Shown piece by piece: positions 2,416 to 10,097 of a stretch of DNA of 10,097 nt. How positions within the stretch are numbered: position 1 is the first letter of the stretch; the number at the start of each line of letters is the position of its first letter. This stretch comes from a virus (taxonomy: Duplodnaviria > Heunggongvirae > Uroviricota > Caudoviricetes), in IMG/VR virus record IMGVR_UViG_2537561978_000012, positions 1 through 10,097 of that record; one strand, 5' to 3'. The notes below the pieces were generated by a model. It ran no database searches, was not told the DNA's origin, and saw nothing but the letters and a program-made list of their open reading frames with translations. A program made the translations under genes and the position numbers.

Positions 2416-3217
2416 CCCACACCCCTTCTATCCAGTCAGTGTTATTCCAGTCAAGCTCATCGCTTTTCCCGGCGTTTTTTGATTTTCCCCTGATATGATT
2501 TACGTGCCTGGCGAATTTTTGTTCCCACTGAACCTGCGTGAACACTTTGCCCTCAGCCATCCAGTAATCCCGGAATGCAGCAAGTTCAGCAGGTGTAAAT
2601 TCCGGTTCCGGCAGGGCCGTTCCCCACAGCGCAGCACGCCGTCGAAAATCCGGCGACGGATGCCAGCCATCGGTCATCGGAAATTTCCCGATGGGTTCAC
2701 TCAGGCCATCCAGAAATTCAGGTTCAGCCACCTGCAACGGCATACCGTTCGCTTCACTGGTCGGAGCACCCTCGCGCACGTGCGCTATGTGTGGGGTTTT
2801 ATATATATCTTCCTCTTCCTCTTCCTCTGGTAACTCCTTTTGTAACGCTGTTGGCGTTACTTTTTGCGTTACTCGTTTTCGATGCTCTGCCACTCTTCTA
2901 TTCGTAAGTGCACGTTTTTTCGATGATTCTCCATTGTGTCGCTCAAAGTTTGGAAGAATTAGTTTGCCGTCATGATAAGCAAGCCATCCGACGCTAATGA
3001 GGGCGTCAGCAAATCCTGTAATAAAAGCGAGTCTATCAAGTACTCCTTTTGTAACGCTGCCAGCGTTACCGTCTATTGTTTGCTGGTCAGCCCATGCCCA
3101 TATACGAACCAGCTTTCCAAGAACAGCATCTGGATCAATACCCAGAATTTCTGCTATCTGAAAAATTTCAGGTTTATCAGGAGTGATAACTTCAACCTTA
3201 ATCCAGCTGCTTGCCAT
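2387..3217 (-). CDS. O-like replication initiator (HTH N-terminus, acidic linker, DnaT-like C-terminus; tentative)
   Basis: Track ORF is 2387..3235 beginning at a GTG. I prefer the ATG at 3217..3215 (MASSWIKVEV...) because GAGGGG lies about 7 nt upstream. Sits immediately upstream of and overlapping the P-like gene, carries an EEEEEE linker and internal iteron-like DNA repeats. Not similar in sequence to lambda O; assignment rests on position and architecture. Confidence 0.65.
   Translation of the reverse strand: MASSWIKVEVITPDKPEIFQIAEILGIDPDAVLGKLVRIWAWADQQTIDGNAGSVTKGVLDRLAFITGFADALISVGWLAYHDGKLILPNFERHNGESSKKRALTNRRVAEHRKRVTQKVTPTALQKELPEEEEEEDIYKTPHIAHVREGAPTSEANGMPLQVAEPEFLDGLSEPIGKFPMTDGWHPSPDFRRRAALWGTALPEPEFTPAELAAFRDYWMAEGKVFTQVQWEQKFARHVNHIRGKSKNAGKSDELDWNNTDWIEGVWDEINSRTSQ
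2797..3069. repeat. Iteron-like repeat array inside the O-like gene (candidate replication origin)
   Basis: Two perfect 19-bp palindromes GTAACGC-N5-GCGTTAC at 2842-2860 and 3051-3069, each preceded by the identical 18-mer ACTCCTTTTGTAACGCTG (2833-2850 and 3042-3059). Extra GCGTTAC half-site at 2866-2872; CGTTTT(TT)CGATG direct repeats at 2874-2884 and 2913-2925; (TA)-rich tract TTTTATATATAT at 2797-2808; (CTTCCT)3 at 2809-2826. Confidence 0.5.
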
Positions 3218-3410
3218 AGGTTTCCCCTCTTGCACTCTTTAGTGCACAAGCAAATTCATTACGATGGCGGTTGGCGCTATTCATTGCACATTCAACACAT
3301 GTTCCGTTCAGAACATACCTTTCAGAGAGATGGCCGTGACGGCACCGCTTTCCTGTGAAATAGCGATTTAACCCGGCTTTTGCGGCCTCCATTCTGGTTA
3401 CTATCTTCAA
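3198..3410 (-). CDS. Small zinc-ribbon-like protein at the cII position (hypothetical)
   Basis: Track ORF starts at a TTG (3410..3408) with an AAGAGG Shine-Dalgarno about 9 nt upstream; alternative ATG at 3392..3390 (MEAAKAG...) has no obvious Shine-Dalgarno. Contains C-x-H-x-H ... C-x2-C (KRCRHGH...CVEC). Its 3' end overlaps the O-like start region. No similarity to lambda CII noted. Confidence 0.45.
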   Translation of the reverse strand: MKIVTRMEAAKAGLNRYFTGKRCRHGHLSERYVLNGTCVECAMNSANRHRNEFACALKSARGETYGKQLD

Positions 3411-3517
3411 TTTTTCCGCCTCTTTTTGTTATTGATATTGGCTATTTTGCACAATTGGAAAATTTGATCAACCAGATTTGGTTTTTTATTACCTTTGAGG
3501 TACGAATAGATATGAAA

Positions 3518-3558: not shown

Positions 3559-3789
3559 TCATGAGTAGAAGAAGTATGCCAGTTCTGCTTTTGAGCGCAG
3601 CCATTGTCTTGTTTTACAGGCTTTAAAAAGCCCATTCATCAATACTTTACCTGGCATTTTGCGCTTACCTGTTAAGTGAGTCTGGATATAGTGACTCGTC
3701 GTTCCGGCTTCCTGTGCGAAGGCTTCACGCTCATCCGGAGTAAGTGCAAGCCAGTGCTTTTTGAAATCGAAATGTCCGTTATCGCTCAT
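3559..3789 (-). CDS. Cro-like small HTH regulator
   Basis: 76 aa; ATG at 3789..3787. First gene leftward from the divergent operator region, facing the repressor gene. Predicted helix-turn-helix around EAFAQEAGTTSHYIQTHLTGKR. Position and size match a Cro analogue; no direct similarity to lambda Cro. Confidence 0.55.
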   Translation of the reverse strand: MSDNGHFDFKKHWLALTPDEREAFAQEAGTTSHYIQTHLTGKRKMPGKVLMNGLFKACKTRQWLRSKAELAYFFYS

Positions 3790-3821
3790 AGCTATTGCCT
3801 GATATTTATTTCAGATAATAA

Positions 3822-3888
3822 ATATTCACCCATAAGGTAACAAAAATCAAGGATAGTTACCTATGAGGTGCATTTACCTGTTGGGTAA
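3822..3888. promoter_or_regulatory. OR-like tripartite operator with divergent promoters
   Basis: Site C 3874-3888 TTACCTGTTGGGTAA (perfect); site B 3857-3871 TTACCTATGAGGTGC (left half perfect, right half 3/5); site A 3826-3840 TCACCCATAAGGTAA (one mismatch). Candidate leftward promoter on the minus strand: -35 TTGATT (plus 3845-3850), 17-bp spacer, -10 GAATAT (plus 3822-3827), with site A inside the spacer/-10. The rightward repressor promoter is not confidently located; TAATAT at 3886-3891 is a candidate -10. Confidence 0.6.
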
Positions 3889-3943
3889 TATTGCTTTAAA
3901 TTGAATCATCTACTGATTCATATATGAGGCGATTTTCCAGAAA

Positions 3944-4528
3944 ATGAAAAGTATCCAGGACGTCCGCAGGCAAAATCTCAACGACTTGATCGACCGTGAA
4001 TTCAATGGTGTTCAGACGCGGATGGCAGAAAAACTTGGAACTCAGGCAAATCTGGTAAACCGCTGGGCTCTTGGCAAGAAGGTTATCGGCGACCAGGTTG
4101 CGCGAAAAATTGAAGCTGCCGCCAATAAACCCCGTAACTGGCTTGATATCGATCGCTCGCTTTCTCAGGAGGGGTTTCAGCCTGTCGGCCCAAGCGACAT
4201 TGGTCAGCTGGCGGCTCACAACCTGGAACGCTGGATGAGCGAAAGCCGCGACCTTTCAACGCAGGGAAAACTACACCGCGCATCCGGCGTCGCCCAGGTG
4301 ACAATCAGCCGCCTGTTAAACAATGAAGTCAGCGTTTCCATTTCCACCCTAGAGAATGTTGCATCCGCATTCGGGCGTCACGGCTATGAATTACTGATTC
4401 ACCCGCACGACCCTGCGACTATCAACTATGACCGCTCGCGCTACGCATTGTTACCCGAAACAGAGAAGGCAAAGATCGAAAGTTACATTGAATTTGTCAT
4501 CAGCCAGAACGAAAGAAGCAAACAATAA
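3944..4528 (+). CDS. Prophage repressor, CI-position, dual helix-turn-helix, no S24 peptidase domain
   Basis: 194 aa. First ATG of the frame at 3944, in-frame stop upstream at 3914-3916, no convincing Shine-Dalgarno. Two HTH-like segments: MAEKLGTQANLVNRWALGKK (N-terminal) and LHRASGVAQVTISRLLNNEVSVSISTL (C-terminal). No Ala-Gly / Ser...Lys autocleavage module evident. Divergent from the Cro-like gene, followed by a terminator and then the pL-like promoter, i.e. the lambda cI layout. Confidence 0.7.
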   Translation: MKSIQDVRRQNLNDLIDREFNGVQTRMAEKLGTQANLVNRWALGKKVIGDQVARKIEAAANKPRNWLDIDRSLSQEGFQPVGPSDIGQLAAHNLERWMSESRDLSTQGKLHRASGVAQVTISRLLNNEVSVSISTLENVASAFGRHGYELLIHPHDPATINYDRSRYALLPETEKAKIESYIEFVISQNERSKQ

Positions 4529-4548: not shown

Positions 4549-4573
4549 AAGCCGCCTCATGGCGGCTTTTTTA
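4549..4573 (+). terminator. Rho-independent terminator after the repressor gene (tImm-like)
   Basis: AAGCCGCC-TCAT-GGCGGCTT hairpin (GC-rich 6-8 bp stem) followed directly by a T-run at 4567-4572, 21 nt after the TAA stop at 4526-4528. Confidence 0.75.
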
Positions 4574-4585
4574 TTGCCAACAAGA

Positions 4586-4662
4586 TTACCTTATGGGTAA
4601 TTTTTTTAACTCATATCTATTGACATCAAACCAAATACGCATAATTATTACCTCAACGGTAA
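4586..4662 (+). promoter_or_regulatory. pL-like early promoter flanked by two perfect operators
   Basis: Perfect palindromes at 4586-4600 (TTACCTTATGGGTAA) and 4648-4662 (TTACCTCAACGGTAA). Between them a consensus -35 TTGACA at 4620-4625 and an A/T-rich -10 candidate (AATTAT, 4643-4648) after a 17-bp spacer. The downstream site overlaps the -10 and start region. Confidence 0.65.
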
Positions 4663-7539: not shown

Positions 7540-8182
7540 GAAATACACACTAATCTATGCAGATCCACCCTGGGTATACCGGGACAAAGCCGCAGATGGT
7601 AATCGCGGTGCCGGTTTTAAATATCCGGTTATGAGTGTGCTTGATATCTGCCGCCTTCCTGTGTGGGATTTGGCCGATGAAAACTGTCTGTTGGCCATGT
7701 GGTGGGTGCCAACACAACCACTCGAAGCACTAAAAGTTGTTGAAGCCTGGGGATTCCGTCTGATGACCATGAAGGGCTTCACGTGGATAAAATGTGGTAG
7801 TCGACAACAAGATAAACTGGTTATGGGTATGGGTCACATGACTCGCGCCAATAGTGAAGATTGCCTGTTTGCAGTAAAGGGAAAACTACCTCCGCGCATT
7901 AATGCAGGGATCGTTCAGTCATTTACCGCACCGCGGCTTGAGCATTCAAGAAAACCAGATGTCGTTCGTGAAAAACTTGTGCAATTGTTAGGCGATGTTT
8001 CTCGCATTGAACTGTTCGCCCGCCAGTCGTCTCATGGCTTCGATGTTTGGGGTAATCAGTGCGAAGACCCGGCAGTGCAACTACACCCTGGATACGCGTT
8101 GGCTATTGGCGGATTAACAAATGCATTCAGCAATGCTCCGCTGTCACCAACAGACAACCAGGGGCGGGAGCGTTCAGCATGA
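7532..8182 (+). CDS. MT-A70-family N6-adenine DNA methyltransferase (orphan)
   Basis: Track ORF starts at GTG 7520; I prefer ATG 7532 ([14 protein letters not shown]...). Catalytic DPPW motif near the N-terminus. No adjacent restriction endonuclease candidate. TGA stop overlaps the phosphatase start (ATGA at 8179-8182). Confidence 0.8.
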
Positions 8183-8838
8183 ACCTATATCAACGCATCA
8201 ATGGCGCTGACTGGTGCAATATCTTCGTCGTCGGCGATCTGCATGGGTGCTACACGCTGCTGATGAACGAACTCGACAAAGTTTCATTCGACCCGGCGCG
8301 CGATTTGCTTATTTCCGTTGGTGACCTTGTTGACCGCGGCGCTGAAAACGTCGAATGCCTGGATTTGATTACTATGCCGTGGTTCCGAGCTGTTCGTGGC
8401 AACCATGAGCAGATGATGCTGGATGCACTGGTCAACGGCGGAAGTTTCGGACATTGGATGTCAAACGGCGGTGGATGGTGGCGCCAACTTGATTCTGAGC
8501 AGGATGTGCAACTCAAATACCTTCTGCCAAAGGTTACCAACCTCCCGATGATTATCGAACTGGTTACCGGCAATAAGAAGGTCGTCATCTGCCACGCAGA
8601 CTACCCCCACAACGAATACGCATTCGATAAGCCAGTACCGGAAGAAATGGTGATATGGAATCGTGAGCGGGTTAGCGACGCGCAGGACGGTATTGTCTCG
8701 GAGATAACCGGTGCCGATTTGTTCATCTTCGGTCATACGCCAGCACATCACCCACTAGTGTATGCAAACCAGATGTACATCGACACCGGCGCAGTGTTCT
8801 GCGGAAATCTGACGCTTACCAAAGTCCAGGAAGGATAG
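8179..8838 (+). CDS. Lambda-type Ser/Thr protein phosphatase (metallophosphoesterase)
   Basis: Track ORF starts upstream at 8059, but homology begins at ATG 8179 ([12 protein letters not shown]...). Signature motifs GDLHG, GDLVDRG and GNHE are present, and similarity to lambda phosphatase (as I recall it) runs end to end, including the C-terminal [13 protein letters not shown]. Confidence 0.9.
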
Positions 8839-8840
8839 AA

Positions 8841-10097
8841 TTATTTATTACTGTCTTCCATCCACTTCTCAAACTTCGACGGGGAGAACGGAATCAGATC
8901 CGTATGCTCCCCGTTAATCCAGGAATCAATCATATCGGCCCACTGCTGCAACATGTAGGCGCGCTGTCTGGCGTATTCCGCTTTGTTATATACGGCGCGC
9001 ACACCTTTCTGCTCATGTGCCAGAGCCTTTTCAATCCAGTCTGAAGGATAACCAGCCTCATGCAACAACGTACTGGCTGTACGGCGCATATCATGTACAG
9101 TGAAGTCCTGAATATACTCACCATCTTCATTTATTATTTTCACCGTTCTGTCGATCAGAGAGTTCAGTGCGGCATTAGATAATGGCTTCCGGAAATTGTA
9201 ACGACCAGGAACCAGATATTCACTTCCACCAGCGCACATCTGCAACCCAACCAATATATCCTGTGCCTGTTTTGGCAGGTAAATAACGTGCGCCCGGCTT
9301 CCCTTCATGCGGTCTGAAGGAATTGTCCATGTCCATTTTTTAAAATCTATTTCGTCCCACGTTGCATTGGTGAATTCGCCTTTACGAACCATAGTGATAA
9401 GCACCAGTTTTAAAGCCATTTTCATAGTGCCCATAGCACCAATGGCATCCAGCGTGCGGAAGAAAAGACCAATTTCTTCTGGTGTCAGCGTTCGCTCTCG
9501 TGGTTTAAATATGGCGATAGACGAAGGCTTAATATCAGCCGCAGGATTAAACAAACCATGACCGCGGTCATTGGCGTGACGGTATACGCTGCTGATGATC
9601 TCCCTGGCCTGCACTGCTGTTGCCCGGCCACCGCGTTCGACAATCCGGTCACACAAATCACGAACCATCGATGTGGTAATTTCAGCCATCATTTTGTTGC
9701 CAAGAACCGGAAGTATGTCACGGTCGATCACCGCCTGCTTCATTGCGCGGGTACTGTCAGCCAGGATGACGTGTTTCATATAACTGTCGGTATGTACCGC
9801 AAACGTCTCGGCACCACGAATCTTTTTGATACCGTCACGTTTAGCCGCAGCCGGCGACTGGCCTGCTTTAAGCAACTTCTTTGCAGCAATCAGTTCTTCC
9901 CGCGCTTCTGCCAGGCTGATACCGTCACGCCCATACTGCCCGATTACCAGTGTTTCGCGGCGACCGTTGATACGGTAGTCATAGCGAAACGAGACCGTAC
10001 CTGACGTAAGCACAGCTACATACAGCCCGTCACGATCGGAGACCTTGTACAGTTTGTCCTGCGGCTTGAGGTTTTTTAATTTTGTATCGGTAAGCAC
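8841..10097 (-). CDS. int: P4-type tyrosine integrase; N-terminus at or just beyond the right window edge
   Basis: 418 aa. N-terminal LTDTKLKNLKP...YKVSDRDGLYV...FRYDYRINGRRETL is typical of the arm-binding domain of P4-family integrases. C-terminal catalytic region includes HDMRRT and a Tyr-containing tail (RAVYNKAEY). First codon in the window is GTG at 10097..10095, so the true start may lie just outside. Convergent with the phosphatase gene, 2-nt gap. Confidence 0.9.
   Translation of the reverse strand: MLTDTKLKNLKPQDKLYKVSDRDGLYVAVLTSGTVSFRYDYRINGRRETLVIGQYGRDGISLAEAREELIAAKKLLKAGQSPAAAKRDGIKKIRGAETFAVHTDSYMKHVILADSTRAMKQAVIDRDILPVLGNKMMAEITTSMVRDLCDRIVERGGRATAVQAREIISSVYRHANDRGHGLFNPAADIKPSSIAIFKPRERTLTPEEIGLFFRTLDAIGAMGTMKMALKLVLITMVRKGEFTNATWDEIDFKKWTWTIPSDRMKGSRAHVIYLPKQAQDILVGLQMCAGGSEYLVPGRYNFRKPLSNAALNSLIDRTVKIINEDGEYIQDFTVHDMRRTASTLLHEAGYPSDWIEKALAHEQKGVRAVYNKAEYARQRAYMLQQWADMIDSWINGEHTDLIPFSPSKFEKWMEDSNK

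Follow-up and report, generated by a model that had tools for sequence, protein, structure and literature searches.

A Rep-family prophage repressor without a self-cleavage module in the immunity region of an epsilon15/phiV10-like prophage of Escherichia coli

How a prophage is induced when the repressor at its cI-like position lacks a self-cleavage module is the question raised by rep, a gene for a 194-aa prophage repressor at 3944..4528 (+) of the stretch of DNA analysed here (10,097 nucleotides, hereafter the window). A preliminary description of this DNA had pointed to such a repressor, with two helix-turn-helix (HTH) segments and the inducing factor, if any, outside the window. Here it is proposed, with high confidence, that the ORF encodes the immunity repressor of a Uetakevirus prophage, a member of the SPC32H Rep family that is not cleaved and is induced through a LexA-controlled antirepressor, Ant.

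Immunity region and identity of the repressor

The 10-kb window belongs to a podovirus prophage of E. coli that resembles epsilon15 and phiV10 (genus Uetakevirus), and it covers the early and immunity region of this prophage. Around rep, its DNA identity is 97-98% to the phages HEMP4, vB_EcoP_ZX5, TL-2011b, and phiV10, and the top match of the whole window among E. coli genomes reaches 98.1% identity over 91% of the window. The gene content agrees with this assignment; it includes a P4-type integrase (8841-10097, -), an MT-A70 methylase, PerC-like and AlpA-like regulators, a RecT/PD-(D/E)XK nuclease pair on the + strand, and cro-like, DnaT-like, lambda-P-like, and DUF1064 genes on the - strand. 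A related prophage in NZ_CP126926 is adjoined by guaA, the 3' end of which is given as the integration site of ZX5 in the paper describing that phage.

The cI-like position earlier ascribed to rep is confirmed by its neighbours. Transcription of rep diverges from that of a cro-like gene of 76 aa (3559..3789, -; phrog_35 'transcriptional repressor', E=5.6e-13), which is syntenic with SPC32H_042 and phiV10 gp41. A terminator and the exo/recT operon come after rep, with the DnaT-like and lambda-P-like replication genes on the far side of the cro-like gene, opposite exo/recT. The GenBank record of SPC32H (KC911856), in which rep is SPC32H_041, has the same gene order, with rep, the cro-like gene, and the replication genes in succession and exo/recT on the other side.

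The rep product is an orthologue of SPC32H Rep, phiV10 gp40, and ZX5 ORF21. A PDB sequence search (phmmer) aligned its aa 1-190 to residues 2-197 of 5D50_A, 'Repressor' (E=4.5e-42), and its aa 89-190 to the fragment structure 5D4Z_A (E=4.6e-20), the two entries being titled 'Rep-Ant complex from Salmonella-temperate phage' and 'Repressor from Salmonella-temperate phage', respectively. By BLASTP, the protein has 42% identity and 59% positives to SPC32H_041 'rep' end to end (E=2e-52), and all 12 of the top Foldseek matches of its AlphaFold2 model are chains of 5D50 or 5D4Z. The two Uetakevirus repressors share length and domain order, whereas their hosts differ (E. coli here, Salmonella for SPC32H). 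The repressors of phiV10 (gp40), epsilon15 (gp38), ZX5 (ORF21), and TL-2011b are in effect the same gene as the rep of the window; ZX5 ORF21 has 98% protein identity to its product, and the GenBank note for phiV10 gp40 reads 'putative transcriptional repressor; two helix-turn-helix motifs; similar to putative repressor epsilon15p38'. According to the ZX5 paper, holin and endolysin transcripts fell by at least 99.97% and free phage disappeared when ORF21 was overexpressed; the ZX5 lysogen can be induced with mitomycin C. In PHROGs, the rep protein falls in transcriptional-regulator and repressor families, and a PADLOC search for defence systems gave no match for it.

Of 5426 complete E. coli genomes, 541 carry rep at a DNA identity of at least 95%, as do 17 E. 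coli phage records. Homologous proteins form 86 clusters from Escherichia, Citrobacter, Lelliottia, Serratia, Raoultella, and other Enterobacterales; the full-length homologues among them have ~194 aa and the same Pfam pattern, and an S24 domain is present in none of the 86.

Domain organization and the missing cleavage module

The two separate HTH-like segments of the preliminary description were recovered at aa ~21-61 and 106-147, both by Pfam and as two bundles in the structure model. HTH_3 (PF01381) matched the protein with E=1.2e-9 and 38.5 bits (cut-off 23) in two stretches, the best of them aa 106-147, and a Cro/YdaS-type HTH (PF15943) matched aa 21-61 with E=3e-4, under Pfam's own cut-off. 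The AlphaFold2 model, computed with 27 homologues as input (pLDDT 78.6), is all-helical, with helical bundles at aa 4-59 and 83-151, a disordered linker at aa 74-79, and a C-terminal helix, the C-terminal module of this monomer model being of low confidence (pLDDT ~60). Foldseek aligned the model to 5D4Z (Rep 92-198) with a TM of 0.73 and an rmsd of 3.6 Å over 100 columns; the structural neighbours also include the DNA-binding domains of SinR, DdrO, P22 C2, and Stl.

According to a structural re-analysis, SPC32H Rep consists of an N-terminal DNA-binding domain (DBD), a middle dimerisation domain (MDD), and a C-terminal domain (CAD) of the p53-like TetDloop type, which is responsible for the tetramerisation of Rep as well as for the binding of the antirepressor Ant. 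Equivalents of all three can be placed in the window protein. The N-terminal domain (aa 1-70; 3944..4153, +), with its HTH at aa 21-61, is the probable DNA-binding domain, judging from the PF15943 match, the SPC32H DBD, and a net charge of +4, which is likewise the family average; in its recognition helix, N36, R40, and W41 are invariant across the family and L37 is invariant or nearly so. The middle HTH_3-like module (aa 85-152; 4196..4399, +), which matches PF01381, lies within the 5D4Z fragment, and has a net charge of ~0, is the equivalent of the MDD. By analogy with the solved homologue, this second HTH-like module would correspond to the dimerisation domain, and two of its residues, Q118 and R123, which are invariant and sit in the helix matching the recognition helix position, may retain a residual DNA contact. 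The C-terminal module (aa 153-194; 4400..4525, +), which aligns with 5D50_A and 5D4Z_A up to aa 190, is the equivalent of the CAD, and its residues Y162, L170, and F184 are invariant across the family. The two-HTH architecture described earlier therefore holds for the presence of two modules, but the second is a dimerisation domain in the solved homologue, and a third, C-terminal module had been missed.

No match to Peptidase_S24 (PF00717) was obtained for the rep protein in Pfam even at E<=1, neither Ala-Gly nor Cys-Gly dipeptides occur anywhere in the 194-aa sequence, and the beta-rich S24 fold is absent from the AlphaFold2 model, with no S24 structure among its top 50 Foldseek matches. The profile search, the dipeptide check, and the all-helical model hence agree with the original remark that an S24 module is lacking. 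The accompanying proposal of a non-cleavable repressor, with an antirepressor elsewhere in the prophage, matches the documented Rep/Ant system of the homologous SPC32H. Kim and Ryu are said to have reported in 2013 that SPC32H Rep stays uncleaved during the SOS response.

Other functions or modes of inactivation were weighed against these observations. That both HTH modules bind DNA, either as a pseudo-dimer on one palindrome or on two classes of operators, is quite improbable; the significance of the HTH_3 match in the second module and the invariant Q118/R123 would favour it, but in the solved homologue the DBD is N-terminal and the second module is described as a dimerisation domain, the second module is neutral as against +4 for the N-terminal domain, and the symmetric palindromic operators presented below fit two identical HTHs, not two different ones. 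The literature on SPC32H Rep likewise assigns the HTH pair on each palindrome to the N-terminal domains of different dimers. RecA-stimulated self-cleavage as in lambda CI, or another proteolysis at a cryptic non-S24 site, is hardly credible: the mitomycin C inducibility of ZX5 fits either route and no evidence specific to cleavage was found, while the missing S24 match and dipeptides, the all-helical fold matching a non-cleavable Rep, and the conservation of a LexA-controlled Ant alongside Rep all speak against it. Still less credible is the assignment of the product to another Xre-type regulator or a HigA-like antitoxin in place of an immunity repressor. An NCBIfam search returned sub-threshold RstR, HigA, and TreR matches only, and the weak HigA and RstR matches on which such an assignment would draw score far under the curated cut-offs; no toxin partner is adjacent, and the cI-like synteny, the flanking operators, and the repression exerted by the 98% identical ZX5 protein point to an immunity repressor.

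Operators, promoters and translation start

A 15-bp palindrome, TTACC-N5-GGTAA, was noticed by eye and then counted by pattern search. With at most 2 mismatches allowed, the window contains 12 matches against 2.8 expected, and none of 200 shuffles reached 12. The candidate operators cluster as three sites at OR, in the gap between rep and the cro-like gene, and two at OL, and they overlap promoter-like sites. At OR, TCACCCATAAGGTAA (3826..3840) overlaps the cro-side promoter at the -35 and the spacer and keeps its position in SPC32H, TTACCTATGAGGTGC (3857..3871) has 2 mismatches and the same spacing in SPC32H, and TTACCTGTTGGGTAA (3874..3888) is perfect and the closest site to rep. In the left-operator region, TTACCTTATGGGTAA lies at 4586..4600 and TTACCTCAACGGTAA at 4648..4662, the latter abutting or overlapping the -10 and start of a PL-like promoter. 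This promoter (TTGACA-17-AATTAT; 4620..4648, +; 10/12 matches) would drive the exo/recT early-left operon, and the promoter-like site of the cro-like gene is TTGTTA-17-TATTAT (3815..3843, -). Between rep and OL there is an intrinsic terminator (4549..4568, +), and the phiV10 record likewise annotates a terminator after the repressor gene. Additionally, an operator-like site, TTACCTTTGAGGTAC (3489..3503), is located past the terminator that follows the cro-like gene, and two perfect palindromes (1525-1539 and 1587-1601) are found between the P-like and DUF1064 genes; this pair has equivalents in SPC32H (35972 and 36034) and in the related prophage L002.

From its position, the palindrome is the presumed operator of Rep. 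The motif and its OR spacing recur in SPC32H, in keeping with a conserved recognition helix, although the OL of SPC32H has three sites and that of the window two clear ones. According to the literature on SPC32H, Rep binds DNA as a tetramer, and one tetramer is enough for repression. As a separate observation, the palindrome is found in complete relatives before int, the head operon, terS, the BRO-N gene, and the ant/tailspike pair, and also in the nin-like region.

The rep ATG is the earliest possible start after the upstream stop in the ORF list. It had been stated that no evident Shine-Dalgarno precedes it; a GAGG is in fact present (dG -5.6 kcal/mol), but it lies 13-14 nt from the ATG and is badly spaced, so that the statement holds in part. 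The Shine-Dalgarno of the cro-like gene is still weaker, and SPC32H rep has no obvious one upstream either, as judged by eye. The idea of a leaderless mRNA like that of lambda cI found no support: a promoter scan of the window placed no promoter-like site for transcription from the rep ATG, and the sole promoter-like elements conserved in SPC32H, TTTACC-18-TAAATT (found by eye, 8/12 matches, under the threshold of the promoter scan), have a predicted start ~35 nt upstream of the ATG, near 3909.

Antirepressor, induction and relation to known systems

The window has no perfect LexA box and no antirepressor candidate. Its one-mismatch LexA boxes number 6 against 3.3 expected, a count reached in 21 of 200 shuffles and thus at chance level, in agreement with the earlier statement that it holds no convincing box or antirepressor. 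The inducer, if any, had been presumed to lie elsewhere, and in complete relatives ant and its LexA box are indeed present upstream of the tailspike gene. SPC32H ant (86 aa, KC911856) is just upstream of the tailspike gene, divergent from it, and is preceded by TACTGTATGTTTATACAGT. The prophage in NZ_CP126926, with an immunity region 99.8% identical to the window, encodes at the ant position a 'hypothetical protein' of 85 aa; this protein shares 88% identity with SPC32H Ant and matches PDB 5D50_E, 'Anti-repressor protein', with E=6.6e-47; upstream of it are a perfect LexA box, CTGTATATTTATACAG, and a further copy of the operator palindrome. This small gene is also labelled 'hypothetical protein' in phiV10, TL-2011b, ZX5, and the RefSeq E. 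coli records inspected. In an alignment of the ant regions of APEC E19035, HEMP4, phiV10, TL-2011b, GPEC1337, ZX5, and SPC32H, the LexA box TACTGT-N8-ACAGT is invariant (7/7 phages or prophages). A single-base change in this box reportedly gives SPC32N, a sister phage, a constitutive lytic cycle.

When rep and ant were joined into one query, 541 E. coli records gave 1095 matching places in total (median 2 per genome); in a sample of 60 records spaced evenly along the ranking, 59 had both genes, and ant was found in 16 of the 17 E. coli phage records carrying rep. One prophage-sized span of GPEC1337 contains both a window-like region (1308726-1318832) and ant (1343918-1344298). From this co-occurrence, it is very likely that the window's own prophage also carries ant. 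Compared with SPC32H, Rep has diverged far more (42% identity) than Ant (88%), and Ant may plausibly bind the window Rep.

Another gene with a LexA box was considered in L002 and rejected. This Gp49-family gene (12636-13010) is a lone opposite-strand gene in the late region with a perfect CTGT-N8-ACAG 68 nt upstream; it was discarded as an antirepressor, its product being a Phage_gp49_66 protein with a weak anti-CBASS Acb4 match and no Ant match, with a terminator-like hairpin (by eye) between box and gene and no conservation of the box in SPC32H.

Following the homologue and the literature, the basic N-terminal HTH domain of Rep would bind the TTACC-N5-GGTAA palindromes, the second HTH-like module would dimerise the protein, and the C-terminal module would tetramerise it; a Rep tetramer sitting on paired operators would then silence the lytic promoters. 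Upon DNA damage, Rep would remain uncleaved and RecA-stimulated LexA cleavage would derepress ant. Ant would bind the C-terminal part of Rep and split the tetramer into Ant-held dimers, off the DNA, and this release of Rep would lead to prophage induction, the inactivation of Rep being reversible. According to the structural literature, Ant traps Rep in a non-functional conformation and the DNA-binding domain is not occluded.

A different inducer is named in the ZX5 paper, in which LexA is unmentioned and the antirepressor is a BRO-N protein (ORF4, 'anti-repressor'). That this protein is the inducer, instead of or besides the small SPC32H-type Ant, is unlikely. Upon overexpression of ORF4, rep transcripts fell by 75% and the prophage fraction dropped from 10^9 to 10^6. 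A BRO-N gene is located 1-2 kb beyond ant in the APEC prophage and also in ZX5, where the two genes share a strand, and operator-like palindromes lie on both sides of it. However, the ORF4 data come from overexpression only, without a binding assay, in a paper that does not mention SPC32H either; the annotation of SPC32H has no BRO-N gene and gives Ant as the antirepressor, in phiV10, ant is followed by an annotated terminator and the 150 bp beyond carry no gene annotation, and no LexA box is found directly upstream of the BRO-N gene. Because it is without annotation in SPC32H and in the 150 bp beyond phiV10 ant, BRO-N gives the impression of variable cargo, in contrast to the invariant ant and its LexA box. 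The BRO-N protein could act as an accessory inducer, next to the LexA-controlled Ant preferred here.

SPC32H Ant has reportedly been described as structurally distinct from the antirepressors of Sipho- and Myoviridae. Similarly to the system proposed here, 186 (Tum), Gifsy-1/-3, Fels-2, and N15 (AntC) combine a LexA-derepressed small antirepressor with a repressor without a cleavage module, as covered in a review; the proteins are unrelated, however, and no sequence match to their repressors or antirepressors was obtained in the searches made. With lambda CI, P22 C2, and LexA, the window rep has in common the genome position, divergent promoters, triple operators, an N-terminal HTH, and C-terminal oligomerisation, but the S24 domain, the Ala-Gly site, and the Ser/Lys dyad module are theirs and not found in rep; by analogy with SPC32H, Rep would be inactivated reversibly by protein binding, in contrast to their cleavage. 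The pLS20 repressor Rco, of the p53 TetDloop type, also has an N-terminal HTH DBD and a C-terminal beta-strand/helix tetramerisation module, and its repression is relieved by a partner protein, Rap, as that of Rep is by Ant. Unlike Rco, Rep has an extra middle HTH-like dimerisation domain, and the two have no detectable C-terminal sequence similarity.

The palindromes extend beyond the immunity region. With at most 1 mismatch, 15 prophage sites were counted in the complete relatives against ~0.9 expected over the two loci searched. SPC32H has 18 sites against 0.5 expected. This prophage-wide distribution suggests direct prophage-wide repression. A reading of Rep as a direct genome-wide silencer, with a palindrome before nearly every transcription unit, and not as a lambda-style two-promoter repressor, is offered as tentative and somewhat doubtful; if true, ant would be under a double lock of LexA and Rep, and tetrameric Rep could bridge distant sites. 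The epsilon15 genome paper reportedly noted the repeated palindrome already, in which case this reading may not be new.

The initial observation on rep is correct and the system is already known, being the SPC32H-type Rep/Ant, with near-identical alleles annotated or tested in phiV10 and ZX5. The architecture, structure, and induction mechanism of the SPC32H repressor family were published by Kim and Ryu in J Virol in 2013 and by Kim et al. in PNAS in 2016. The discovery value of the locus is consequently small, and its practical use lies in annotation. This prophage type is present in about 10% of complete E. coli genomes (the 541 of 5426 above), and some such prophages are O157 typing or reporter phages or reside in pathogenic strains; correct annotation of rep, ant, the LexA box, and the operators would allow better predictions of their SOS inducibility.

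Rep and the protein at the cII-like position

The middle HTH-like "dimerisation" module of the repressor Rep (aa 106-147; window 4259-4384) is uncharged overall and has Q118 and R123 invariant in 27 homologues, at the positions used for DNA contact in an Xre-type recognition helix. At the cII-like position, the window encodes a 70-aa protein (3198-3410, minus strand) of phrog_1081 (function unknown), which has no Pfam family; its C-x-H ... C-x-x-C pattern hints at a small regulator that binds zinc.

A cargo gene and a possible anti-defence gene

A calcineurin-like metallophosphatase (Metallophos, E=1.1e-15) is encoded at window 8179-8838 on the plus strand, flanked by the MT-A70 methylase and the integrase. 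Relatives have a DUF1382 and/or a DGQHR (DNA sulphur-modification-like) gene here instead; thus this slot is a variable moron position. In L002, a stretch of a related complete prophage, a Phage_gp49_66 gene (12636-13010, plus strand) is the single opposite-strand gene of the late region and adjoins tRNA-Arg. Its product has a weak match to the anti-CBASS protein Acb4 (PDB 9E4W, E=2.5e-3), and the gene may be an anti-defence moron. A perfect CTGT-N8-ACAG box (12553-12568), which is not kept in SPC32H, lies 68 nt upstream, with a terminator-like hairpin, recognised by eye, between box and gene.

The antirepressor gene and the operator-like palindromes

The small SPC32H-type antirepressor gene, ant, is found in L004, from the related prophage (7710-7967, minus strand; LexA box 7990-8005), and in further relatives (L006 2611-2868; L008 and L009 256-513; L010 264-521). 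Despite its invariant LexA box, the only annotation that the gene carries in phiV10, TL-2011b, ZX5 and RefSeq E. coli genomes is "hypothetical protein"; the authors of the ZX5 paper gave the antirepressor role to a BRO-N protein, not to the small Ant.

The operator-like palindrome TTACC-N5-GGTAA, the predicted Rep site, spreads well outside the operator clusters OR and OL: in the window at 1525-1539, 1587-1601 and 3489-3503, in L002 at 12018, 15169, 15187, 18132, 18194 and 27404, and in L004 at 5786, 6831, 6924 and 8045. In SPC32H the motif occurs 18 times, where 0.5 occurrences would be expected. Almost all prophage transcription units are preceded by the palindrome, among them int, the head operon, terS, DUF1064, BRO-N and ant/tailspike. 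Its distribution suggests direct repression by Rep across the whole prophage, as well as double control of ant by LexA and Rep.
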